Both the position numbers and the translations under genes were made by a program. From NCBI GenBank assembly GCA_011884725.1, contig GCA_011884725.1_3919.1: 64,000 nt of DNA; one strand, 5' to 3'. Below are positions 6,434 to 46,117 of this stretch, in pieces. Each line of letters starts with the position of its first letter. The first letter of the stretch is position 1. This stretch comes from a phage. The notes beneath the pieces are model-generated. The model worked only from the letters and a program-made list of their open reading frames with translations. It ran no database searches and was not told where the DNA came from.

Positions 6434-8578
6434 ATGAACAAAGTACAGATTATTAAAAAGAATGGCTCACTTGAAGAACCTGATATCAAAAAAGTTTTAG
6501 CGGCAGTAACAAAGTCAGCTAACAGGGTTGGGTATAGAGAACTTCCACCAGATGTTACCCAAGCTCTTGAGTCAGCATTTATGAGGATTCTGGTAAAGTC
6601 CACTAAGCAGAATAATTTACTAATCTCGGTAAATGATATTCACAGTATTGTTGAGGGTGCTTTGGCAGAAGTTAATCACGAGATTTATGAGTCTTACTCA
6701 ACATATAGAAATTACCGTAAAGAGGTTGCTCAAAATTGGGATGAGCTTTACCAAAAGACCAGAGACACACTCTTCTTAGGTGACCGTGAAAATGCTAACT
6801 TTGACAGCAGTTTAATTTCTACAAAGGGTTCAATTATTCGTGGTTATCTGACTAAAGAAATCTTTAAACAATACTATTTAACACCAGAGGAACTTGAAGC
6901 CATTGAAAAAGGGTTTATCTACATCCATGACTTAAGAGACTTAATTTTTGGTGGTATTAACTGCTGCTTGTTTGACATTGGTAAAGTACTGAAAGGTGGC
7001 TTTGAAATGTCTGGCATCGAATACTGTGAACCGAAGTCTGTACTGTCAGCCTTACAAGTTATCGGTGATGTAGTTCTTTCAGCAACTGCACAGCAATTTG
7101 GTGGCTTTACTTTAGCAGAGATTGATAAGGTACTTGTACCATATGCTAAGAAGTCTCTACGCTATCATGCTGAGAAAGCATCATCTTATGGTATTCCTAA
7201 AGAGCATTACCACAATTATGTAATGGAGCAGTTACAAATTGAACTGACTCAGGGTTTTCAGTCACTTGAGATGAAACTAAATACCGTACCTTGTAGCCGT
7301 GGTGATTTTGCATTCACAACTTTAACATTTGGTTTACTTGACTCAGATATGTCTAATGAGGATAATCGACTCCAATACATGATTGCAAGTACTCTCCTAG
7401 ATGTTCGTATGAATGGACAAGGCAAGAGCAAAAAACCTGTTGTATTCCCTAAACTGGTTTATATTTATGACCAGAAGAGACATGATGAAAATATCTGTCA
7501 AGGTCACCTGTACAGTAAAGCTATTGAGTGTTGCTCTAAAGCGATGTACCCAGATTTCTTAAGTGTGTCTGGTCATGGTGCTGTAGCAGAGGCTTTTGAG
7601 CGTTCTGGTAAGGTAATTTCACCGATGGGTTGCAGAGCCTTCTTATCTCCATATTTTAATGAGGATGGGGAAGAGTTTTACGTTGGTCGTGCTAACATTG
7701 GTGCTGTATCTTTGAACTTGCCAATGATTTACCAGTACTCTAAAGAGAATGGTTTAGATTTCTGGAAAGAGCTTGATAAGTACCTAGAGATGATTCGCAA
7801 CTTCCACAAGAAACGCTACGAAATGATTGCTAATATGCCAGCAAGTTCTAACCCTCTTGCGTTCACACAAGGTGGTCTGTACAAAGGAACTAAGAAACCT
7901 ACTGACAAGGTTGGTTGGGATATTGTGAAGTCCTTCACAGCTTCTTTTGGTGTTACTGCGCTTGATGAGTTGTCTGTTCTTGCTGAAGGTAAACGACTTC
8001 ATGAAGTTGGAAGCTATAGTTTTGCATATGATGTTCTGGCATACATTAACATGAAAACCGAAGAGTTTAAAAATGAAGATGGCTTCTTATATGCCGTCTA
8101 TGGTACTCCAGCAGAATCACTATGTGGGACTCAGCTAAAACAGTTCAGAGATATGTTTGGGGTTATCAAAGGTGTTTCCGATAAGGAATACTTTACAAAC
8201 AGTTTCCATATGAATGTTGCAGCAGACATCTCACCATTTGAGAAGCAGGACTTAGAAGAGCCATTCTTCCATATCTGTAGAGGTGGTAGAATCCAGTATG
8301 TAAGAGTAGCTAACCCAGAAAACTTATCAGCACTTAAGAGTTGTATTACAAGAGGGATGTTGAAAGGTTTCTATCAGGGACTTAACTTTGACTTAGCAAT
8401 CTGTGAGCATTGTGGTAACAGACCAAAGGCTGATGTTGAAGAATGTGAGGTTTGTCATTCACATGATATCTCTGTGATTAACAGGGTGTGCGGGTACTTG
8501 TCATTCACAAAAATTAAAGGTCAGTCTCGAATGAATGACGCTAAGATGGCAGAAATTAAGGATAGGGTTTCTATGTAG
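6434..8578 (+). CDS. nrdD: anaerobic ribonucleoside-triphosphate reductase (class III)
   Basis: 714 aa; C-terminal glycyl-radical-like RVCGYL and CxxC...CxxC zinc ribbon (CEHCG...CEVCHS). Confidence 0.9.
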   Translation: MNKVQIIKKNGSLEEPDIKKVLAAVTKSANRVGYRELPPDVTQALESAFMRILVKSTKQNNLLISVNDIHSIVEGALAEVNHEIYESYSTYRNYRKEVAQNWDELYQKTRDTLFLGDRENANFDSSLISTKGSIIRGYLTKEIFKQYYLTPEELEAIEKGFIYIHDLRDLIFGGINCCLFDIGKVLKGGFEMSGIEYCEPKSVLSALQVIGDVVLSATAQQFGGFTLAEIDKVLVPYAKKSLRYHAEKASSYGIPKEHYHNYVMEQLQIELTQGFQSLEMKLNTVPCSRGDFAFTTLTFGLLDSDMSNEDNRLQYMIASTLLDVRMNGQGKSKKPVVFPKLVYIYDQKRHDENICQGHLYSKAIECCSKAMYPDFLSVSGHGAVAEAFERSGKVISPMGCRAFLSPYFNEDGEEFYVGRANIGAVSLNLPMIYQYSKENGLDFWKELDKYLEMIRNFHKKRYEMIANMPASSNPLAFTQGGLYKGTKKPTDKVGWDIVKSFTASFGVTALDELSVLAEGKRLHEVGSYSFAYDVLAYINMKTEEFKNEDGFLYAVYGTPAESLCGTQLKQFRDMFGVIKGVSDKEYFTNSFHMNVAADISPFEKQDLEEPFFHICRGGRIQYVRVANPENLSALKSCITRGMLKGFYQGLNFDLAICEHCGNRPKADVEECEVCHSHDISVINRVCGYLSFTKIKGQSRMNDAKMAEIKDRVSM

Positions 8579-10791: not shown

Positions 10792-11058
10792 ATGGGAATT
10801 TTAGGTAATATGAAAGCTGGCTTCTTGAAGGCACTGGCAAAAGCAGCAGCAATTGTTTCTATGACTGGAAAGCAGGTCGGTGTAGATGCTTCAGCGGTTG
10901 CACAGGTTCTTACAAGCCAAATTGAACAGCAGCCTTACATCTATGTAGGCCGTGGCAAAGGTGGTAAGAAACAAGCCCACCGTCCGTCTGGTGCAGCAGC
11001 TATTAAACGAGCAGCTAAGAAAGCTCGTAACCGTAAACGTAATAAGAAGGCTAAATAA
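10792..11058 (+). CDS. hypothetical highly basic protein
   Basis: ATG 10792 in track ORF frame; Lys/Arg-rich C-terminus (KKARNRKRNKKAK). Confidence 0.45.
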   Translation: MGILGNMKAGFLKALAKAAAIVSMTGKQVGVDASAVAQVLTSQIEQQPYIYVGRGKGGKKQAHRPSGAAAIKRAAKKARNRKRNKKAK

Positions 11059-11060
11059 TC

Positions 11061-11381
11061 ATGAGCAAAGTTTATAACACTCGTAAATTACAGATTTTCT
11101 TACTGTGCCAGTTTATGGCTAGAGAGCATAACTCCTACTATTGTGGTACAGGATTCATTAGTGATAATGATGGCTCATATCTCCCATTCAAAGAGGCTGT
11201 AAAACTCTTCAATGAAGAGAAAAGCTCTGAGAAAGATATTGAAAAAGTTAAATTAACCTACAGTAAGAAAGATAAGAAGATTATCTGCCTAGATAACTTT
11301 GTGAAAGTTACCAAAGAAACTAAAGAGTTAATGGAAGAAAGTGAAATTCCATTCACAAGAATCTTGAAAGTAGCTCAGTAA
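11061..11381 (+). CDS. hypothetical protein
   Basis: ORF track; followed by terminator 11395-11420. Confidence 0.5.
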   Translation: MSKVYNTRKLQIFLLCQFMAREHNSYYCGTGFISDNDGSYLPFKEAVKLFNEEKSSEKDIEKVKLTYSKKDKKIICLDNFVKVTKETKELMEESEIPFTRILKVAQ

Positions 11382-11394
11382 GCAGATACTATAA

Positions 11395-11420
11395 GGGAAC
11401 TGTAAAGGTTCCCTTTTTAT
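11395..11420 (+). terminator. rho-independent terminator GGGAAC-TGTAAAG-GTTCCC + TTTTT
   Basis: Direct read. Confidence 0.65.
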
Positions 11421-11432
11421 TTTGGAGATAAT

Positions 11433-11948
11433 ATGTATCTGTCAAATCTGAAACGTTCTGCTGCAATGTCAGTGTTAAGACTCAGTTTTGAGGAACGTCA
11501 AGAGTTCATTGACTCCCACCAATACGACCCTTCCAACTCCAATCACATGATTCTCTGGAATCGTGAGAGTACTCGTGAAAGAGCATTATTTCGATATTAT
11601 CCACACTACACCATAGACAACCTGTATGAATGTTTTGTTGTGAAGAACACCATTACAGTACTCAATAAACTTTGCAGATACACAGGCAGTCAATCCTTCA
11701 CATTAGGCCACCACAAACCTGTTACAAAAGGTGGTGAACATCACTGTGCAAACTGGTTTATTCAGACTAAAGCTGATAACCAGAAGCAAGGAGATAGCCT
11801 TTTAAGTGCCCCTAAGATGACCTATGAAGAGCAAGAGAAATATATCAAAAATAATATGCCAGATGTGCTTGACAACAACTATACAGATTTGGCAATATCT
11901 CTCCTGTTGAAGTTCGAGACAGTTTATAGGGCAACTTATAATGGCTAA
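11433..11948 (+). CDS. hypothetical protein with HNH-like nuclease motif
   Basis: GGAG upstream of ATG; LGHHKPVTKGGEHHCANWFIQTKADNQKQG resembles an HNH core. Confidence 0.45.
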   Translation: MYLSNLKRSAAMSVLRLSFEERQEFIDSHQYDPSNSNHMILWNRESTRERALFRYYPHYTIDNLYECFVVKNTITVLNKLCRYTGSQSFTLGHHKPVTKGGEHHCANWFIQTKADNQKQGDSLLSAPKMTYEEQEKYIKNNMPDVLDNNYTDLAISLLLKFETVYRATYNG

Positions 11949-40882: not shown

Positions 40883-40917
40883 TTGACAACCACTAAAAAA
40901 TAATGTTAAAGTGGTTA
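40883..40917 (+). promoter_or_regulatory. promoter-like TTGACA with inverted repeat AACCACT / AGTGGTT; -10 weak
   Basis: Direct read; same A-rich-GT-TTGACA upstream pattern as the other promoters. Confidence 0.3.
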
Positions 40918-40938: not shown

Positions 40939-41015
40939 CTCTGTTTAGCTCAGCTTGGTAGAGCGTTCCGTTTGGGGCGGTAAGGCCGGAGGTTCAAGTC
41001 CTCCAACAGAGACCA
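40939..41015 (+). tRNA. tRNA-Pro (anticodon TGG)
   Basis: Acceptor CTCTGTT/AACAGAG, C1:G72, T-arm GGAGG-TTCAAGT-CCTCC, anticodon loop TTTGGGG, A73, encoded CCA. Confidence 0.75.
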
Positions 41016-41022
41016 AATTAAT

Positions 41023-41100
41023 GTTCCAGTAGACAAAATGGTAAAGTCACCACTCTTTCAAAGTGGATATCTGAGGGTTCAAATCCCTTCTGGAACGCCA
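41023..41100 (+). tRNA. tRNA-Glu (anticodon TTC)
   Basis: Acceptor GTTCCAG/CTGGAAC, anticodon stem CCACT/AGTGG loop CTTTCAA, T-loop TTCAAAT, G73, CCA. Confidence 0.75.
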
Positions 41101-41191
41101 GTTTTGACAGAAGACCAATTACAGCAAACTTAATCTTATTCATCTGAAGGTAAATCGGACAAAGAAGAGATTTGGTCTGGTCATTAAGAAT

Positions 41192-41268
41192 TGCGGGTAT
41201 AGAGAAAGGGCGTCTCACATGTCTCATTAGCATGGTATCGGCAGGTTCGACTCCTGCACCCGCCTCCA
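41192..41268 (+). tRNA. tRNA with CAT anticodon (Met or Ile2 type), atypical 5' region
   Basis: T-arm GCAGG-TTCGACT-CCTGC, 3' acceptor ACCCGCC, anticodon stem CATGT/GCATG loop CTCATTA; 5' acceptor has a 1:72 mismatch or an extra nt before the D-stem. Confidence 0.5.
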
Positions 41269-41352
41269 AATTTACAGAAGACCGTTTACAGCAAAATTGA
41301 ATGAAATTTTTAGCGGAAAAATTGAAAGATACGGTCTGGTAATACTAAACAT

Positions 41353-41426
41353 GGTTAGGAAGCACATAAGGTATGTGCGGTCGCCTGTTAAGCGAATGGC
41401 ACAGGGTTCGAATCCCTGACTAACCG
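41353..41426 (+). tRNA. tRNA-Asn (anticodon GTT)
   Basis: Acceptor GGTTAGG/ACTAACC, anticodon loop CTGTTAA, T-arm CAGGG-TTCGAAT-CCCTG, G73, no encoded CCA. Confidence 0.7.
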
Positions 41427-41438
41427 CAAAATTGAAAT

Positions 41439-41526
41439 GTGTCGTTATCCCGTAGATGGTAGCGGTGGGGACTGTAAATCCCTTGTCATTGAGACTCGGT
41501 AGGTTCGACTCCTACACGGCACACCA
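41439..41526 (+). tRNA. tRNA-Tyr (anticodon GTA), long variable arm
   Basis: 88 nt; acceptor GTGTCGT/ACGGCAC, anticodon loop CTGTAAA, T-arm GTAGG-TTCGACT-CCTAC, A73, CCA. Confidence 0.75.
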
Positions 41527-41531
41527 ATAAA

Positions 41532-41608
41532 GGCTATGTAGTTTAACTGGAGAAAATACTCCCCTGTCACGGGAGATGATGTGAGTTCAAGTCTCATCGT
41601 AGCCGCCA
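41532..41608 (+). tRNA. tRNA-Asp (anticodon GTC)
   Basis: Acceptor GGCTATG/CGTAGCC, anticodon stem CTCCC/GGGAG loop CTGTCAC, T-loop TTCAAGT, G73, CCA. Confidence 0.8.
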
Positions 41609-41837
41609 AATTATAATAAGTATTTCAAAATGATGTTTTGAGAGGGCTATTTAGCCCCTCCCTTAAAGAGTTCTTACGAGTATTCTTTAAAGGAGCAGAA
41701 GACCAAATACAGCAAGAATGTATGATATTTTCAAGCCAATCCAATTTTGAAAAAATTTAAAACTTGGTCTGGCTCAACAAATTTACAGAAGACCGTTTAC
41801 AGCAAAACTTAAACAATCTATTTCTCGGTAAAGAAAA

Positions 41838-41892
41838 GGCGAAGGTTCGATTCCTTCACTCGGCAGATGTCGAGTTGGTGTAATGGTAGCAC
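41838..41892 (+). pseudogene. tRNA remnant: 3'-half-like T-arm segment followed by 5'-half-like acceptor/D-arm segment, no intact cloverleaf
   Basis: GAAGG-TTCGATT-CCTTC-ACTCGGCA then GTCGAGTTGGTGTAATGGTAGCAC; no complementary acceptor partner found in correct order. Confidence 0.4.
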
Positions 41893-42065
41893 TTAAGATG
41901 ATAAACAACGGTCTGGTAATTATCTTTGTAGATAAGTTATTAAGCTTACCTGTGAGTATGCGACCACAAAGGGTGAAAGGGTAAATTCTAGATTTAAACC
42001 CAAAAAGGCACATCGCTACAGACCTTAAGCAAGTCTGGGTAGCTTATCTACAAAGATAATTTAAT

Positions 42066-42141
42066 GGAAGTGTAGCAGAATGGTGATGCGGCAGACTTTT
42101 AATCTGACAGGCGATGGGTTCGAATCCCTCCACTTCTACCA
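42066..42141 (+). tRNA. tRNA-Lys (anticodon TTT)
   Basis: Acceptor GGAAGTG/CACTTCT, anticodon loop CTTTTAA, T-loop TTCGAAT, A73, CCA; weak T-stem shared with the CTT Lys tRNA. Confidence 0.65.
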
Positions 42142-42145
42142 ATAT

Positions 42146-42222
42146 GGTTCAGTCGCAGATAAGGTAATGCAAGGGTCTCATAAGCCCTATGAATGTGGGT
42201 TCGATTCCCATCTGAACCTCCA
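42146..42222 (+). tRNA. tRNA-Met (anticodon CAT)
   Basis: Acceptor GGTTCAG/CTGAACC, anticodon stem AGGGT/GCCCT loop CTCATAA, T-arm GTGGG-TTCGATT-CCCAT, CCA. Confidence 0.75.
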
Positions 42223-42223
42223 A

Positions 42224-42299
42224 GCTGGTATAGTTAAGAAGGTTATAACACTCCCCTGATAAGGGAACATCGGTGGTTCGATTCCACCTACCAGTACCA
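42224..42299 (+). tRNA. tRNA-Ile (anticodon GAT)
   Basis: Acceptor GCTGGTA/TACCAGT, anticodon loop CTGATAA, T-arm GGTGG-TTCGATT-CCACC, A73, CCA. Confidence 0.7.
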
Positions 42300-42314
42300 A
42301 TTTCAATAAAGTTG

Positions 42315-42343
42315 TTGACATTGAGATGTGACTACTTTATAGT
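42315..42343 (+). promoter_or_regulatory. strong sigma70-like promoter TTGACA-17-TATAGT inside the tRNA cluster
   Basis: Direct read; followed by about 200 bp without ORF or tRNA before tRNA-Arg. Confidence 0.55.
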
Positions 42344-42545
42344 AACCTTAGTTTTCGTTGCGTAGCGTCTATTTTGCAAATTTAAAATAAATGCAAACGA
42401 CAATGTTTTTCTGGCAGTAGCTTGATAGGCTAAACACCAGTGAGGTCTTCCAATCCCTCATCAAAGAATTTGGCGTACTCGCCCACGGTATGATTAATAA
42501 GGTGGGCATCTTTAAGGGCTTTCTAAGAGAGTCTTTAAAGATAAT

Positions 42546-42622
42546 GCACCCTTAGTTCAATTGGATAGAGCAACGGTCTTCTAAATCGTTAGTTACAGGT
42601 TCGAATCCTGTAGGGTGTACCA
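42546..42622 (+). tRNA. tRNA-Arg (anticodon TCT)
   Basis: Acceptor GCACCCT/AGGGTGT, D-arm GTTCAATTGGATAGAGC, anticodon stem ACGGT/ATCGT loop CTTCTAA, T-loop TTCGAAT, A73, CCA. Confidence 0.8.
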
Positions 42623-42764
42623 AATAGTTAGCAGATTACTTAGACGGCCTTAGCGGGTCTTCCTGTAGGGAGGTGGTCTGTATCTCATGTTTTCCAGAAC
42701 ATGTAAATAATCTGAGAAGAAGCTTGACAGTGTTGAGATAACAGGGTAAGCTTCGAATTATAAT

Positions 42765-42847
42765 ATGGGACGATGTTAAGACTCTAAGGCATGAGCAACG
42801 GCCTCCAAAACCGTTTCAAAGGGGTTCAACTCCTCCGTCCCATGCCA
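42765..42847 (+). tRNA. tRNA-Trp (anticodon CCA) with enlarged D region
   Basis: Perfect acceptor ATGGGAC/GTCCCAT, anticodon stem ACGGC/ACCGT loop CTCCAAA, T-loop TTCAACT, G73, CCA; about 7 extra nt between acceptor and anticodon stem. Confidence 0.55.
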
Positions 42848-42860
42848 AAGTCTTATTAGG

Positions 42861-42948
42861 GGTAGGTAGCGGCTAATGGTAGCCAAACTGTCTTGAAAAC
42901 AGTTGCCACTGTAGAGATACGGTGAGGGTTCGACTCCTTTACTTACCG
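42861..42948 (+). tRNA. tRNA-Ser (anticodon TGA), long variable arm
   Basis: 88 nt; acceptor GGTAGGT/ACTTACC, anticodon stem ACTGT/ACAGT loop CTTGAAA, T-loop TTCGACT, G73. Confidence 0.7.
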
Positions 42949-43104
42949 CCTAATAAGATTTACTCCGTCCATGCTTGTTCGCATTGTCGGTTTATCCCTC
43001 GTGTATTGTCGTACACTGTCAAAGCACCTAGTAGGTGTCACGGAGAAGAGATAATATCAAGCTCTCCAAAGGTTCTAGTCACCGGATTAAACAAGACTAT
43101 GCAA

Positions 43105-43124
43105 AGACCTATTTAGGTCTTTTT
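43105..43124 (+). terminator. terminator-like hairpin AGACCT-ATTT-AGGTCT + TTTT inside tRNA cluster
   Basis: Direct read. Confidence 0.45.
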
Positions 43125-43204
43125 AGAGGGCTTCTAAGGTTATTAGTCGCTTGTTGTGGAACCTTGTTGCTTAGGTTCTTAGAAGTTCTCTAAAAAGATT
43201 TAAT

Positions 43205-43282
43205 GGGAGATTGACGGTAATTGGTAAACCTACCATCCTTAGAAGTTGGTGTTTGAGGGTTCGAATCCCTTGTCTCCTACCA
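43205..43282 (+). tRNA. tRNA with Leu-type anticodon TAG but short variable arm
   Basis: Acceptor GGGAGAT/GTCTCCT (two G-U pairs), D-loop AATTGGTAAA, anticodon loop CTTAGAA, T-arm GAGGG-TTCGAAT-CCCTT, A73, CCA. Confidence 0.5.
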
Positions 43283-43289
43283 AATTAAT

Positions 43290-43365
43290 GCAGGTGTAGC
43301 AAAATGGTTATGCGGCTGACTCTTAATCAGTAAGACGATGGGTTCAATTCCCTCCACCTGTACCA
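43290..43365 (+). tRNA. tRNA-Lys (anticodon CTT)
   Basis: Acceptor GCAGGTG/CACCTGT, anticodon stem GCTGA/TCAGT loop CTCTTAA, T-loop TTCAATT, A73, CCA. Confidence 0.65.
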
Positions 43366-43371
43366 AACATT

Positions 43372-43447
43372 GGGGATGTAGTTTACATGGTTAAAACATA
43401 AGTTTTGCAAACTTAAGTACAGGGTTCAATTCCCTGCTTCTCCACCA
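43372..43447 (+). tRNA. tRNA-Ala (anticodon TGC)
   Basis: G3:U70 pair in acceptor, anticodon stem TAAGT/ACTTA loop TTTGCAA, T-arm CAGGG-TTCAATT-CCCTG, A73, CCA. Confidence 0.7.
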
Positions 43448-43453
43448 ATTAGT

Positions 43454-43528
43454 GCATCCATAGTTTAAACGGGAAAATTACAGTCTTCCAAACTGAGGTT
43501 GAGGGTTCGATTCCCTCTGGATGCTCCA
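43454..43528 (+). tRNA. tRNA-Gly (anticodon TCC)
   Basis: Perfect acceptor GCATCCA/TGGATGC, anticodon loop CTTCCAA, T-arm GAGGG-TTCGATT-CCCTC, U73, CCA. Confidence 0.8.
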
Positions 43529-43534
43529 AACAAT

Positions 43535-43611
43535 GCTGCTTTCGTATAATTGGCTATTACACATCCCTTGTAAGGATGGAAATGCAGGTTCGAGTCCTGT
43601 GAGCAGCACCA
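43535..43611 (+). tRNA. tRNA-Thr (anticodon TGT)
   Basis: Acceptor GCTGCTT/GAGCAGC, anticodon stem CATCC/GGATG loop CTTGTAA, T-loop TTCGAGT, A73, CCA. Confidence 0.8.
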
Positions 43612-43707
43612 ATTCAGAGGTCAAGTGAAAGACCGCTTTGAGTCAACTGAAGACCGTAACAAATACCACGGAGTTGAGTTAGCGGCACAACTTCAGACCT
43701 CTTTCAT

Positions 43708-43782
43708 ACTCGCTTAGTTTATATGGTAAAACATCACCCTTACAAGATGAAGAAAAAGGTTCAAGTCCTTTAGTGAGTACCA
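43708..43782 (+). tRNA. tRNA-Val (anticodon TAC)
   Basis: Acceptor ACTCGCT/AGTGAGT, anticodon loop CTTACAA, T-arm AAAGG-TTCAAGT-CCTTT, A73, CCA. Confidence 0.65.
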
Positions 43783-43783
43783 T

Positions 43784-43861
43784 GTTCCAGTATCCCAATT
43801 GGCAGAGGATGCAAGCTCAAACCTTGTATTAGTGACGGTTCGAATCCGTCTTGGAACACCA
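43784..43861 (+). tRNA. tRNA with Leu-type anticodon CAA but short variable arm
   Basis: Acceptor GTTCCAG/TTGGAAC, D-loop AATTGGCAGAGGA, anticodon stem GCAAG/CTTGT loop CTCAAAC, T-arm GACGG-TTCGAAT-CCGTC, A73, CCA. Confidence 0.55.
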
Positions 43862-43866
43862 ATTTT

Positions 43867-43942
43867 GCAGGATTAGTTCAAATGGAAAGAGCAACAGTCT
43901 ACGAAGCTGTTAATAGGGGTTCGAATCCCTTATCCTGCGCCA
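43867..43942 (+). tRNA. tRNA-Arg (anticodon ACG)
   Basis: Perfect acceptor GCAGGAT/ATCCTGC, anticodon stem ACAGT/GCTGT loop CTACGAA, T-loop TTCGAAT, G73, CCA. Confidence 0.8.
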
Positions 43943-43959
43943 GATAAAAAGGTGATACT

Positions 43960-44202
43960 ATGCAAACATTAACAGTAGTTGAACATGAAAACTGTGAGAG
44001 TATTGAGTTTGTCAGGGTCATTGGTGTTGAACACCACATTTTCTTAAAAGTGGGATACTTATGTGACCCCGCTAGAGTAGAAAGATTTATACGTGATTGT
44101 TTTGGTGGTAGACATCTGAAGAGTGTTATTTTTGAGACAGTTTTACCAGAAGGTTTAGAAACGAATAATAACATTTACCTCCTTACGAGGATTAGACAAT
44201 GA
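43960..44202 (+). CDS. hypothetical protein (inside tRNA cluster)
   Basis: ORF track; AAAGGTGA upstream. Confidence 0.5.
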   Translation: MQTLTVVEHENCESIEFVRVIGVEHHIFLKVGYLCDPARVERFIRDCFGGRHLKSVIFETVLPEGLETNNNIYLLTRIRQ

Positions 44203-44756
44203 GATACTTAAAGTATGCTTCATGGATTTTCTTAGCTTTGTTAGAGCCATTTGCAGCAATCTTAGCAGTTATCTTAGCACCTTTTGTAGTTCCATTCTAC
44301 AGTGAGAAGAAAGGACACTTACCTTTCGGGTTCAGATGGATGGAGACATATGACAACCCAATTGATGGTGATGAAGGTCACGTTAAAAGATGGGCTAATA
44401 TTAGATGGATTGGTAAACTAGGTGTCTACATGCAAAGAGTCGGATGGCTCTGGAGAAACAAAGCTTATAACTTCTCTTACCATGTATTAGGAAGAGATGT
44501 AAGAGATGTTACTAAGTGGAAAGGTAATATCAACGTAAGTTCTAACCCTGAAGATAATCAGACTGGTTATCTCCTAATGTGGAACAGTAATGCTTGGGGA
44601 TTATTCGCTTTTATCCCATCAATTAAAGTCTTCGGTAAACAGTTTTACTGGAGAATTTATGTTGGATGGAAACTTAAAAGTGTTGTCCCAGAAGAAAGAG
44701 CATTCTCAAGGGAAAGAGTTATGTTGGCATTCTTTATTCATCCACTGAGAAAGTAA
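44199..44756 (+). CDS. hypothetical membrane protein (inside tRNA cluster)
   Basis: ORF track; N-terminal hydrophobic segment WIFLALLEPFAAILAVILAPFVVPF; Trp-rich. Confidence 0.5.
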   Translation: MRYLKYASWIFLALLEPFAAILAVILAPFVVPFYSEKKGHLPFGFRWMETYDNPIDGDEGHVKRWANIRWIGKLGVYMQRVGWLWRNKAYNFSYHVLGRDVRDVTKWKGNINVSSNPEDNQTGYLLMWNSNAWGLFAFIPSIKVFGKQFYWRIYVGWKLKSVVPEERAFSRERVMLAFFIHPLRK

Positions 44757-44764
44757 AGATTTAA

Positions 44765-44840
44765 AGGGGATTAGTTTACAAGGTTAAAACCTCGGTCTTT
44801 GAAATCGAAGAAGTTGGTTCAATTCCAACATCCCCCGCCA
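44765..44840 (+). tRNA. tRNA-Gln (anticodon TTG)
   Basis: Anticodon stem TCGGT/ATCGA loop CTTTGAA, T-arm GTTGG-TTCAATT-CCAAC, unpaired 1:72 and G73, CCA. Confidence 0.7.
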
Positions 44841-44842
44841 AT

Positions 44843-44921
44843 GCTCCATTACTCCAATTGGCAGAGAGGCCAGACTTAAAATCTGTGTTATGTATCGGTT
44901 CGAATCCGATATGGAGTACCA
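44843..44921 (+). tRNA. tRNA with Leu-type anticodon TAA but short variable arm
   Basis: Acceptor GCTCCAT/ATGGAGT, D-loop AATTGGCAGAGAG (paralogous to the CAA tRNA), anticodon loop CTTAAAA, T-arm ATCGG-TTCGAAT-CCGAT, A73, CCA. Confidence 0.55.
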
Positions 44922-44926
44922 AATTT

Positions 44927-45002
44927 AGCGGTATAGCATAACTGGCAATGCAGCAGTCTCTGAAGCTGTCCTATTAAGGTTCAAATCCTTATGCCGCTGC
45001 CA
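44927..45002 (+). tRNA. tRNA-Gln (anticodon CTG)
   Basis: Acceptor AGCGGTA/TGCCGCT, anticodon stem GCAGT/GCTGT loop CTCTGAA, T-arm TAAGG-TTCAAAT-CCTTA, G73, CCA. Confidence 0.7.
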
Positions 45003-45033
45003 CTTCTAAGGATTCTTACGAGAGTCCTTAAAT

Positions 45034-45109
45034 GTGGCCTTATCATAAATGGTAATGACCCATGCTGTGAACATGGTCTATACGGGTTCAAATCCCGTAG
45101 GTCACCCCA
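45034..45109 (+). tRNA. tRNA-His (anticodon GTG)
   Basis: Acceptor GTGGCCT/AGGTCAC, perfect anticodon stem CCATG/CATGG loop CTGTGAA, T-loop TTCAAAT, C73, CCA. Confidence 0.8.
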
Positions 45110-45114
45110 ATTTA

Positions 45115-45191
45115 TAGTCCAAGTAGCTTATATGGTTAAAGCGCGTGTCTGAAAAACATGAGAAGAGGGTTCAAATCCCACTGGACTACCA
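45115..45191 (+). tRNA. tRNA-Phe (anticodon GAA)
   Basis: Acceptor TAGTCCA/TGGACTA, anticodon stem CGTGT/ACATG loop CTGAAAA, T-loop TTCAAAT; exact 3' end ambiguous by 2 nt. Confidence 0.65.
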
Positions 45192-45207
45192 ATTTCAAAG
45201 GTGCTTA

Positions 45208-45942
45208 ATGAAAGAGATGACAGAACAAGGTAAGGAGATTTTCAATCTCTTAAAAACCGGTAAAGGGTTTTCTAACCCCCTTATTACTGGTGCAGCAGTT
45301 CTCGGTGGAACCGTAGCTGCCTCTACATCACTTGTAAGCTCTATTAGCTCTGTATCAGACCCTACAGTAAAGGATAAGCTTGTTGCTGCTGGACTTACAA
45401 CAGTTCTGCTTAACAGCTTTACCACGAGTCTGACAAGCACTACATCAACTACCAAAACACTAACAGATTACGGTCAAAAGTCCATTGATGAGTTTTCATC
45501 ACGTATGCAGGTAGCAAAAGGTTACTCTAATGTTATGGGTGCAGCAGGTGAACAAGTTGGCTGTACACCATTTAGTGGTATTATGGGTGTTGCTACAGAG
45601 TATGGTCAAAAAACTATTGATACGATTAACAGTGTACTAGATAGTGTTAATGGTGTGTTAAGTGACTTACAAGATGCTATTGACAAAGGTCTTGATACTA
45701 TTTCTGATTTAGCTGAGCAAGCTGTTAGTAAGATTAATGAAGGTATTTCAAAAATTACAGCTTATGCAGATGAAGTTGTGCAGATGATTGAAGAAGAAGC
45801 TGCTCTTATTGCAGAGTACCTTAAAACGAATATCAATGGGTTCTTAGCAGGTATCTTACCAGACTGGTTTGATGATGCTTGTAAAACTGGTGTAATTGAC
45901 ACTATTGCAACACCAGAAATGAAGAACGCATTACAGAAATAA
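45208..45942 (+). CDS. hypothetical Ser/Thr-rich protein
   Basis: Start set to ATG 45208 (track ORF start 45145 lies inside the tRNA-Phe gene); stop 45940-45942 sits 2 nt before a tRNA. Confidence 0.45.
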   Translation: MKEMTEQGKEIFNLLKTGKGFSNPLITGAAVLGGTVAASTSLVSSISSVSDPTVKDKLVAAGLTTVLLNSFTTSLTSTTSTTKTLTDYGQKSIDEFSSRMQVAKGYSNVMGAAGEQVGCTPFSGIMGVATEYGQKTIDTINSVLDSVNGVLSDLQDAIDKGLDTISDLAEQAVSKINEGISKITAYADEVVQMIEEEAALIAEYLKTNINGFLAGILPDWFDDACKTGVIDTIATPEMKNALQK

Positions 45943-45944
45943 AT

Positions 45945-46037
45945 GGAAGATTAACCCTAAAAGGTAAGGGAGCAGTTTGCTAAACTGCCAGTAGCTGAGA
46001 AATCGGTGTACCAGTTCAAGTCTGGTATCTTCCTCCA
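45945..46037 (+). tRNA. tRNA-Ser (anticodon GCT), long variable arm
   Basis: 93 nt; perfect acceptor GGAAGAT/ATCTTCC, perfect anticodon stem GCAGT/ACTGC loop TTGCTAA, T-arm ACCAG-TTCAAGT-CTGGT, CCA. Confidence 0.7.
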
Positions 46038-46041
46038 ATTT

Positions 46042-46117
46042 GAATCCGTGACAGAAACGGCTATGTGCCTGTCTGCAAAACAGGTTTATAAGGGTTCGAG
46101 TCCCTTCGGATTCTCCA
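46042..46117 (+). tRNA. tRNA-Cys (anticodon GCA)
   Basis: Perfect acceptor GAATCCG/CGGATTC, perfect anticodon stem CCTGT/ACAGG loop CTGCAAA, T-arm AAGGG-TTCGAGT-CCCTT, U73, CCA. Confidence 0.8.

Follow-up and report, generated by a model that had tools for sequence, protein, structure and literature searches.

Three leucine tRNA genes of type I length

The 64-kb stretch of phage DNA analyzed here (GCA_011884725.1, contig GCA_011884725.1_3919.1), referred to below as the window, contains a tRNA gene cluster at positions 40939..46117 in which ARAGORN called 26 genes, all on the + strand. Three genes inside this cluster have the leucine anticodons UAG, CAA and UAA and encode tRNAs of 78-79 nucleotides (nt) that lack a long variable arm. 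According to a 2023 review the long arm is present on tRNA-Leu everywhere except in animal mitochondria (PMC9976931). The region shares 99% identity with Escherichia phage vB_EcoM-Ro111lw and matches more than 250 Felix O1/wV8-type phages, and judged by these matches the window is that of a Felixounavirus (a Felix O1-type phage). The matching Felixounavirus records carry the same three genes annotated as tRNA-Leu. A complete genome that is 99% identical, MH571750, has the same 26 tRNAs with these three as its only leucine tRNAs. That complete genome contains no tRNA beyond the cluster and no long-arm tRNA-Leu, and hence the claim of the initial annotation that these are the only leucine candidates stood, and the canonical long-arm gene elsewhere for which it had allowed did not turn up. 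MH571750 also lacks any aminoacyl-tRNA synthetase gene, and therefore any charging of the window tRNAs would be by a host enzyme.

The first gene, tRNA-Leu(UAG) (Leu-TAG; 43205..43282, + strand), is 78 nt long including the encoded CCA and has its anticodon at 43240-43242, a 5-nt variable region (UGUUU) at 43250-43254 and A73 at 43279. Its D-loop region (UAAUUGGUAAA, 43218-43228) adjoins an atypical D-stem, in which a C is bulged or the register is shifted. The second, tRNA-Leu(CAA) (Leu-CAA; 43784..43861, + strand), is likewise 78 nt with the encoded CCA; the anticodon lies at 43818-43820, the 6-nt variable region (AUUAGU) at 43828-43833, and position 73 is A. A D-stem of 3 base pairs (bp) closes an 11-nt loop (CAAUUGGCAGA, 43796-43806). 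The third, tRNA-Leu(UAA) (Leu-TAA; 44843..44921, + strand), is 79 nt including the encoded CCA, with the anticodon at 44877-44879, a 7-nt variable region (GUUAUGU) at 44887-44893, A73 and the same 3-bp D-stem and 11-nt loop (CAAUUGGCAGA) at 44855-44865. As first noticed in the initial annotation, Leu-CAA and Leu-TAA have a common D-arm, CCAATTGGCAGAG.

All three genes were found by ARAGORN, by the Rfam tRNA model RF00005 and by R1, a custom covariance model described below. The RF00005 scores were 40.0 bits for Leu-TAG, 44.0 for Leu-CAA and 47.5 for Leu-TAA, each above the gathering score of 29, with E-values of 6e-5 to 5e-7 in the 64-kb window; these were the lowest RF00005 scores of the short-arm tRNAs of the cluster. 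The three tools placed the anticodon loops identically and none moved a loop from its position in the initial annotation, the anticodons, overall lengths and variable regions of which are thus upheld by ARAGORN and Rfam. Each anticodon loop has 7 nt and retains U33 and A35. The acceptor register of Leu-TAG was ambiguous in that Rfam was one base off relative to ARAGORN; sequence comparison with the homologue of phages 5 and BF23 (see below) supports the ARAGORN register, in which A73 is followed by CCA.

Variable-region lengths were measured from the ARAGORN parse. At 5, 6 and 7 nt (TAG, CAA and TAA, respectively) they fall outside type II, which has more than 10 nt forming a stem-loop, and the combination of a leucine anticodon with a short loop of about 5 nt ending at nt 48 is that of a type I tRNA-Leu. 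Three other ARAGORN calls on the same strand served as internal controls: tRNA-Tyr(GUA) (41439..41526) with a 15-nt variable arm, tRNA-Ser(UGA) (42861..42950) with a 20-nt arm and tRNA-Ser(GCU) (45945..46037) with a 21-nt arm. Hence, type II architecture is retained in the cluster for those tRNAs whose synthetase reportedly uses the arm.

Leucine identity elements

In E. coli A73 is crucial for leucine identity, and neither the anticodon nor the long arm is required. The A15-U48 pair, G18G19, A20a and the tertiary pairs that join the D-loop to the T-loop are essential, and E. coli tRNA-Leu variants without the long arm kept activity (PMC9976931). We aligned the E. coli K-12 leuZ, leuW and leuX tRNAs by structure with the three phage genes. 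The D-arm of Leu-CAA and Leu-TAA proved to be the D-arm of the host leucine tRNAs, a 3-bp stem with an 11-nt loop of the form N13-A14-A15-U16-Y17-G18-G19-Y20-A20a-R21-A22, and both phage tRNAs have U8, U48, A73 and the T-loop UUCGAAU as do those of the host. The host tRNAs thus resemble the phage genes in anticodons, A73, U8:A14, A15-U48, the 13.22 mismatch on a 3-bp D-stem, the loop pattern N-AAUYGG-YA-R-A and a standard T-loop, but differ in having a variable region of 13-15 nt with a stem-loop in place of 5-7 nt. A second difference is that Leu-CAA and Leu-TAA have A9 and C13, whereas host and other long-arm leucine tRNAs have G9 and G or A at position 13.

The A73 discriminator reported in the initial annotation was present in all three aligned phage tRNAs, as was the T-loop UUCGAAU, which provides U54-A58, U55 and C56 for contacts with the D-loop. 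The U8:A14 pair and the A15-U48 Levitt pair were read directly in Leu-CAA and Leu-TAA and under the R1 alignment in Leu-TAG, which has the same identity elements if one C is bulged from the 5' strand of its D-stem, as R1 aligns it. The placement of G18G19, A20a and the unpaired 13.22 also follow leuZ, leuW and leuX in lengths and bases, again with the bulged C needed in Leu-TAG. Judged by this alignment, the complete E. coli-type set of identity elements for leucyl-tRNA synthetase (LeuRS) is retained in the three phage leucine tRNAs.

The specificity of this set was assessed on about 2,370 tRNAs parsed from phage, viral-contig and bacterial loci, the full signature being taken as the joint presence of A73, A14, A15 and U48, an unpaired 13.22, and a stretch of three nucleotides that follows G19 and includes A20a. 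The signature occurred in 82% of long-arm and 79% of short-arm leucine tRNAs but, among about 1,950 tRNAs, in 0-6% of every other isotype, and among short-arm leucine tRNAs overall A15 was found in 96% and U48 in 97%. Within the window only Leu-CAA and Leu-TAA carry the full signature, with Leu-TAG joining them if one bulged C is allowed.

Synthetases other than LeuRS and the seryl and alanyl enzymes (SerRS and AlaRS) need anticodon bases that are absent from these tRNAs (PMC9976931). Position 3:70 is G3-C70 in Leu-TAG and U3-A70 in both Leu-CAA and Leu-TAA, and thus the G3:U70 of AlaRS substrates is missing; the lack of a long arm and the presence of A73 rather than G73 argue against SerRS. 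By sequence, the three genes contain no determinant for another anticodon-independent synthetase.

The motif AATTGGCAGA of the D-loop was considered as a leucine-specific marker and rejected. With type I spacing it occurs mostly in tRNA-Trp and tRNA-Gln, the bacterial genome scan giving tRNA-Trp(CCA) in 42 of about 120 loci and tRNA-Gln(CTG) in 16.

Models of the tRNA body

The R1 covariance model was built from 76 long-arm leucine tRNAs only, with the arm trimmed to 5 nt and the anticodon replaced by NNN, and sequences resembling the window's own tRNAs were excluded from training. R1 gave 59.5 bits for Leu-TAG, 55.9 for Leu-TAA and 54.2 for Leu-CAA, which were ranks 1, 3 and 5 of 26. Upon subtraction of the generic Rfam score the three genes became the top three of 24 (Leu-TAG +19.5, Leu-CAA +10.2 and Leu-TAA +8.4), whereas the best of the other window tRNAs gained 1.3 bits and most lost 7-25 bits. 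Isotype-specific covariance scoring, the check put forward in the initial annotation, therefore prefers exactly these three genes over the generic tRNA model, and this model of the leucine tRNA body assigns them to leucine.

Per-isotype HMMs run with nhmmer put leucine first for Leu-TAG and Leu-CAA. These HMMs were dropped: they scored 0 of 355 held-out sequences and assigned about 16 of the 23 window controls to the isotype expected. As nhmmer was unvalidated, it was replaced by the covariance model and by a column-based classifier. The latter, a naive Bayes model that worked on structural columns and was blind to the anticodon, reached a cross-validated accuracy of 80% and was kept as weak support.

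Conservation, covariation and codon use

Among 292 phage records, 160 matched the Leu-CAA gene at 100% identity, and among 264, 216 matched the Leu-TAA gene at 99% or more. Both form clean cloverleaves that are essentially invariant across the genus (more than 200 genomes). Leu-TAG was 100% identical in at least 71 genomes and has several alleles within the genus. Most differences between the alleles are compensatory changes at paired positions of the anticodon stem, and the odd D-arm is kept; in some of these alleles a perfect anticodon stem is restored.

Covariation was scored on a cloverleaf with a 3-bp D-stem in a set of 82 short-arm leucine tRNAs of less than about 85% mutual similarity, which included the three from the window. 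Standard pairs filled 97.9% of the cells, compared with 57% after column shuffling and no more than 48% with slid partners, and 19 of the 20 pairs had changes on both sides. The covariation score was 1.04 against 0.23 in shuffles, and none of 500 shuffles reached the observed value. In the same set A73, A14, G18, G19 and A35 were invariant.

Leucine codon use in the 65 long open reading frames (ORFs) of the window was TTA 28%, CTT 27%, CTG 15%, TTG 13%, CTA 11% and CTC 7%. In E. coli CUG is the predominant leucine codon. Its leuZ (UAA), leuX (CAA) and leuW (UAG) isoacceptors, the minor leucine species, share their anticodons with the three phage tRNAs. Codon use and the match of anticodons fit an ordinary decoding role.

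Related tRNAs with and without the arm

A close known parallel is in Salmonella phage 5 and BF23 (AJ604531), T5-like phages that have the host range of the window phage but belong to the Demerecviridae. They encode 77-nt tRNALeu1(UAG) and tRNALeu2(UAA) species that, like the window tRNAs, combine a short 5-nt variable loop with a leucine D-arm, A73 and an encoded CCA. Leu-TAG is 82% identical to phage 5 tRNALeu1(UAG), which a GenBank note gives as identical in BF23, and the acceptor-stem changes between the two are compensatory. The phage 5/BF23 Leu(UAG) differs in having a canonical D-stem and cloverleaf, whereas Leu-TAG has an extra D-loop base and the D-stem defect. According to the AJ604531 annotation, phage 5 tRNALeu2(UAA) (77 nt) with its anticodon changed to CUA is an effective amber suppressor, the inserted residue being unnamed. 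If this note is right, an arm-less phage leucine tRNA would be charged and used by bacterial translation in vivo.

In T5 the syntenic Ala-Leu-Ser2-Ser1 slot is occupied by an 85-nt long-arm Leu(UAG), whereas phage 5 and BF23 have the 77-nt arm-less form there; hence, both architectures are found in one slot of related phages that infect the same hosts. With an identity of only 64% between the T5 and phage 5 alleles in this slot, replacement is indicated in preference to simple deletion of the arm. In this block Ser1 is 100% identical between T5 and phage 5, and Ala, Leu and Ser2 are 60-72% identical. The T5 block (10943-11789) has an inserted HNH endonuclease gene, hegC, and the phage 5 block (6912-7373) has none. 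The comparison suggests replacement of a tRNA cassette, possibly driven by a homing endonuclease.

Streptomyces coelicolor has a type I tRNALeu(CAA) that also has a 5-nt variable loop, coexists with type II leucine tRNAs and a single LeuRS, and for which A14:U8 is important (PMC6614811). It differs from the phage tRNAs in being chromosomal and in having C48 rather than U48, and its synthetase, ScoLeuRS, ignores A73 and charges it by means of a leucine-specific domain whose form is peculiar to Streptomyces (PMC6614811). The minimum for good charging was a variable loop of 5 nt including nt 48 (PMC6614811). Animal mitochondrial tRNA-Leu is likewise of type I, with no long arm and with A73 and A14 as identity elements, but it is organellar, structurally relaxed and served by a dedicated mitochondrial LeuRS, and has no evident direct relationship to the phage genes. 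A short-loop tRNALeu(TAG) also occurs in a mycobacterial tRNA gene cluster, a large mobile array with HNH endonuclease genes that was judged to be horizontally acquired, probably from phage (PMC6582537). It differs in host phylum and was the subject of a passing remark that contained no analysis of identity or function (PMC6582537).

Distribution and origin of short-arm leucine tRNAs

Short-arm leucine tRNAs were also found in Erwinia phages of the genus Kolesnikvirus (three genes), in Enterococcus and Lactobacillus phages of the Herelleviridae and in an Aeromonas T5-like phage. A sample of IMG/VR that was not selected for leucine was drawn with a pattern matching any tRNA that encodes CCA and has the T-loop GGTTCGAATCC. 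In this sample the variable region measured at most 7 nt in 28 of 76 leucine tRNAs but in none of 47 serine and none of 17 tyrosine tRNAs (Fisher p = 2.5e-9), and the leucine proportion held in loci with at least 10 tRNAs. Short-arm leucine tRNAs are thus common in phage clusters and not peculiar to the window phage.

A bacterial scan, with one genome taken per species, gave short-arm leucine tRNAs in 37 of the 120 returned loci. Some lay in dense arrays of 17-33 tRNAs in 8 kb in which the serine and tyrosine arms were kept, and the others were singletons, mostly in Actinobacteria. Arrays of 20-33 tRNAs in 8 kb, with 3-4 short-arm leucine tRNAs each, were seen in Dehalococcoidia, Gammaproteobacteria, Omnitrophota and Pyrinomonadaceae assemblies; the singletons, Leu(TAA) or Leu(TAG), were seen in Streptomyces, Mycolicibacterium, Corynebacterium, Nocardia and Pseudonocardia.

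The D-arms fall into at least two subfamilies. One has U8-A9 with C13 and contains 99 of 173 short-arm but only 1 of 98 long-arm leucine tRNAs; Leu-CAA and Leu-TAA of the window belong to it. The other, U8-G9, resembles long-arm leucine tRNAs and includes Leu-TAG. A single origin of all short-arm leucine tRNAs was unsupported, and 14 of the 173 were closer to a long-arm leucine tRNA than to any other short-arm sequence. Because there are two D-arm subfamilies and because of the T5/phage 5 comparison, the sequences suggest that short-arm leucine tRNAs had more than one origin or underwent extensive exchange.

Arm-less leucine tRNAs are already known from mitochondria, Streptomyces, mycobacterial arrays and the GenBank annotation of T5-like phages, and the window genes are already annotated as tRNA-Leu in phage records. 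A full-text literature search found no analysis of arm-less leucine tRNAs in phages, the nearest items being the S. coelicolor study (PMC6614811), the mycobacterial remark (PMC6582537) and GenBank notes. The breadth of their occurrence in phages and their restriction to leucine appear to be under-appreciated.

Proposed function and alternative explanations

The gene structure, the retained identity elements, the conservation with covariation and the wide occurrence in phages are direct observations, and we consider with considerable confidence that they are best explained by three functional type I leucine tRNAs that are transcribed with the 26-gene cluster and charged by the LeuRS of the host (E. 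coli or Salmonella). Of the two readings offered in the initial annotation, that of unusual short-arm leucine tRNAs is thus the one supported, by the identity set, by the preference of R1 and by the suppressor annotation of a relative. In the proposed mechanism the variable loop of 5-7 nt would replace the long arm in transcripts made as part of the cluster, and the host enzyme would very probably charge the three tRNAs with leucine. The UAA species would then read UUA and UUG, the CAA species UUG, and the UAG species CUA and CUG and perhaps CUU; these codon families are those of host leuZ, leuX and leuW, and several are heavily used by the AT-rich phage. SerRS and, reportedly, the bacterial tyrosine enzyme TyrRS use the arm, and the arm may have been free to be lost in leucine but not in serine or tyrosine tRNAs because only LeuRS does not need it.

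Several observations weigh against this proposal. With the naive Bayes classifier long-arm leucine came first or second for all three genes but was tied with or behind Ser, Arg or Glu, and just 47% of other short-arm leucine tRNAs were classed as leucine. In the discarded nhmmer comparison leucine was third for Leu-TAA, and the D-loop motif AATTGGCAGA is shared with bacterial tRNA-Trp and tRNA-Gln. E. coli LeuRS failed on the S. coelicolor type I tRNALeu(CAA) and was described as specific for type II (PMC6614811). That result may not transfer to the phage tRNAs, because the S. coelicolor tRNA has C48 and not U48. The remaining points concern Leu-TAG. It has the lowest Rfam score of the three (40 bits), an ambiguous acceptor and D-stem register, a D-stem with a C.C or C.U mismatch or a bulge, and an anticodon stem interrupted by a U.U mismatch; MH571750 lists it as 'pseudo' and MK965970 as 'tRNA-OTHER'.

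These features of Leu-TAG are what would be expected if one or more of the genes, most plausibly this one, were a decaying or non-functional relic kept by linkage. We think this unlikely. Leu-TAG is the top hit of the leucine-body model, it is unchanged in the 71 or more genomes cited above while other alleles restore the anticodon stem by paired changes, and its phage 5/BF23 homologue has a canonical cloverleaf; for Leu-CAA and Leu-TAA the clean, essentially invariant cloverleaves argue against decay.

That the three tRNAs read leucine codons but carry another or an ambiguous amino acid, loss of the arm having changed their identity, was the second reading of the initial annotation. It draws on the failure of E. 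coli LeuRS with the Streptomyces tRNA and on the body-only classifiers, which scored Ser, Arg, Glu and Tyr about equal to leucine for single genes. Set against these are the full and leucine-specific LeuRS set and the lack of any rival determinant, the anticodon bases needed by other synthetases, G3:U70 and the serine features all being absent. Moreover, recoding of leucine codons throughout the proteome would be lethal to the phage, the codons in question accounting for about 52% of leucine positions, or about 79% with CUU. Hence, we regard a changed identity as very unlikely. Scarcely more than a slight chance is left to the idea that the short-arm leucine RNAs act mainly as decoys, as substrates of another enzyme or as processing or regulatory RNAs rather than as adaptors: tRNA-like RNAs of no known function do occur in phage clusters (RNA1-3 in the T5 and phage 5 records), and the window has four structured cassettes of which one is tRNA-like, but the leucine genes have standard 7-nt anticodon loops with U33 and A35, anticodons matching leuW, leuX and leuZ whose codons include several that the phage uses heavily, an encoded CCA and a conserved full synthetase identity set, and phage 5 tRNALeu2 is annotated as a ribosomal suppressor (AJ604531).

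Possible evasion of enzymes that grip the long arm

If the three genes are functional leucine tRNAs, loss of the arm might be, instead of neutral streamlining, an adaptation by which they escape anti-phage or toxin enzymes that grip the long arm of class II tRNAs, a tentative idea that we consider rather doubtful. An arm-less phage tRNA would then sustain leucine decoding in cells whose own tRNA-Leu has been inactivated. Candidate enzymes would be nucleotidyltransferases of the MenT3 type and possibly of the AbiEii type, together with Schlafen-like nucleases. The abortive-infection toxin AbiEii has been suggested to prefer class II tRNAs (2026 preprint), and an enzyme that reads the long arm modified tRNA-Leu once the orientation of the arm was corrected. 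Serine and tyrosine tRNAs would be barred from this route because their synthetases need the arm. Phage tRNAs are already thought to evade anticodon nucleases via changes in the loop (PMC10264068). A literature search found no tests of evasion by arm loss for leucine tRNAs. If the idea is true, the tRNA changes by which phages evade defence would extend from the anticodon loop to overall architecture.

The Felix O1-type lineage, a classical one of coliphages and Salmonella phages, supplies all of its own leucine decoding by arm-less tRNAs, in contrast to the picture given in the 2023 review and in the 2019 study of S. coelicolor (PMC6614811). Arm-less leucine tRNAs, which must depend on the enzyme of the host, are also found in T5-like phages such as BF23 and make up about one-third of the leucine tRNAs in the unselected viral sample. 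If charging is confirmed, the phage tRNAs would be natural, evolution-tested minimal substrates of bacterial LeuRS, could serve as compact scaffolds for orthogonal or suppressor tRNAs, and would allow a clean test of the arm dependence of modification enzymes, toxins and defence nucleases. For annotation, a low score alone is no ground for the label 'pseudogene' or 'tRNA-OTHER'.

The anticodon loops (43238-43244, 43816-43822 and 44875-44881) differ from those of the host at position 32 and, in Leu-UAG, at position 37. All three phage tRNAs have C32, whereas E. coli leuZ, leuW and leuX have U32, and in Leu-UAG A37 follows G36, whereas host leuW has G37, the position that bears m1G37 in tRNAs reading CUN codons. 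A37 is shared by Leu(UAG) of T5 and of phage 5. These differences at C32 and A37 may be relevant to modification dependence or to the evasion of nucleases that target the anticodon loop.

Other features of the tRNA cluster

Consensus-like sigma-70 promoters of the cluster were predicted at 40883-40912 and 42315-42343, and CCA was encoded in those cluster tRNAs whose ends were read. The initial annotation had held that, given the three leucine genes, the tRNA set was complete. This was not borne out, for ARAGORN called no tRNA-Trp in the cluster; all that exists is a degenerate, tRNA-like stretch at 42767-42842 (+ strand) that bears a CCA (Trp) anticodon, is followed by GCCA and went uncalled by ARAGORN. 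Its acceptor stem and T-arm are good and its D-arm is poor, and the anticodon loop is closed by a C.A mismatch. It scored 21.3 bits with R1 and 23 bits with the Rfam tRNA-Sec model, and may be an unusual phage tRNA-Trp or a relic.

Apparent protein-coding ORFs lie between the tRNA genes at 43961-44201, 44200-44757 and 45219-45944 (+ strand), and their equivalents in the MH571750 cluster are annotated as hypothetical proteins. MH571750 has an additional 414-nt ORF between tRNA-Gly and tRNA-Thr that is not in the window.

Four paralogous cassettes lie between tRNA genes at 41100-41192, 41268-41348, 41690-41780 and 41779-41922 (+ strand). Every cassette opens with N4-AGAA-GACC-N3-(U/A)ACAGCAA and closes with N3-GGUC-UG-N4, and its ends make up two helices on either side of an AGAA/UG internal loop that is conserved. 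In both helices covariation is seen across the four copies (UGAC/GUCA, UUAC/GUAA and GAGC/GCUC; GACCAA/UUGGUC versus GACCGU/ACGGUC). The four gave no Rfam match up to an E-value of 1, and readings of these 41.1-41.9 kb elements as hairpin ribozymes or Y RNAs were set aside on that result. They recall the stable RNAs of no known function in the tRNA regions of T5 and phage 5. The fourth cassette (41779-41922) contains a tRNA-like domain in permuted order, in which a T-arm (GAAGGUUCGAUUCCUUC) comes first, then an acceptor-like stem with a GAUG loop and last a D-arm-like hairpin, such that the RNA ends emerge at the anticodon-stem position. We take it to resemble the bacterial Y-RNA-like (YrlA) molecules. 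Its predicted fold has z = -2.3, and the cassette is conserved in about 246 Felixounavirus records, where it is mostly unannotated or lies under 'hypothetical protein' or 'tRNA-OTHER'.

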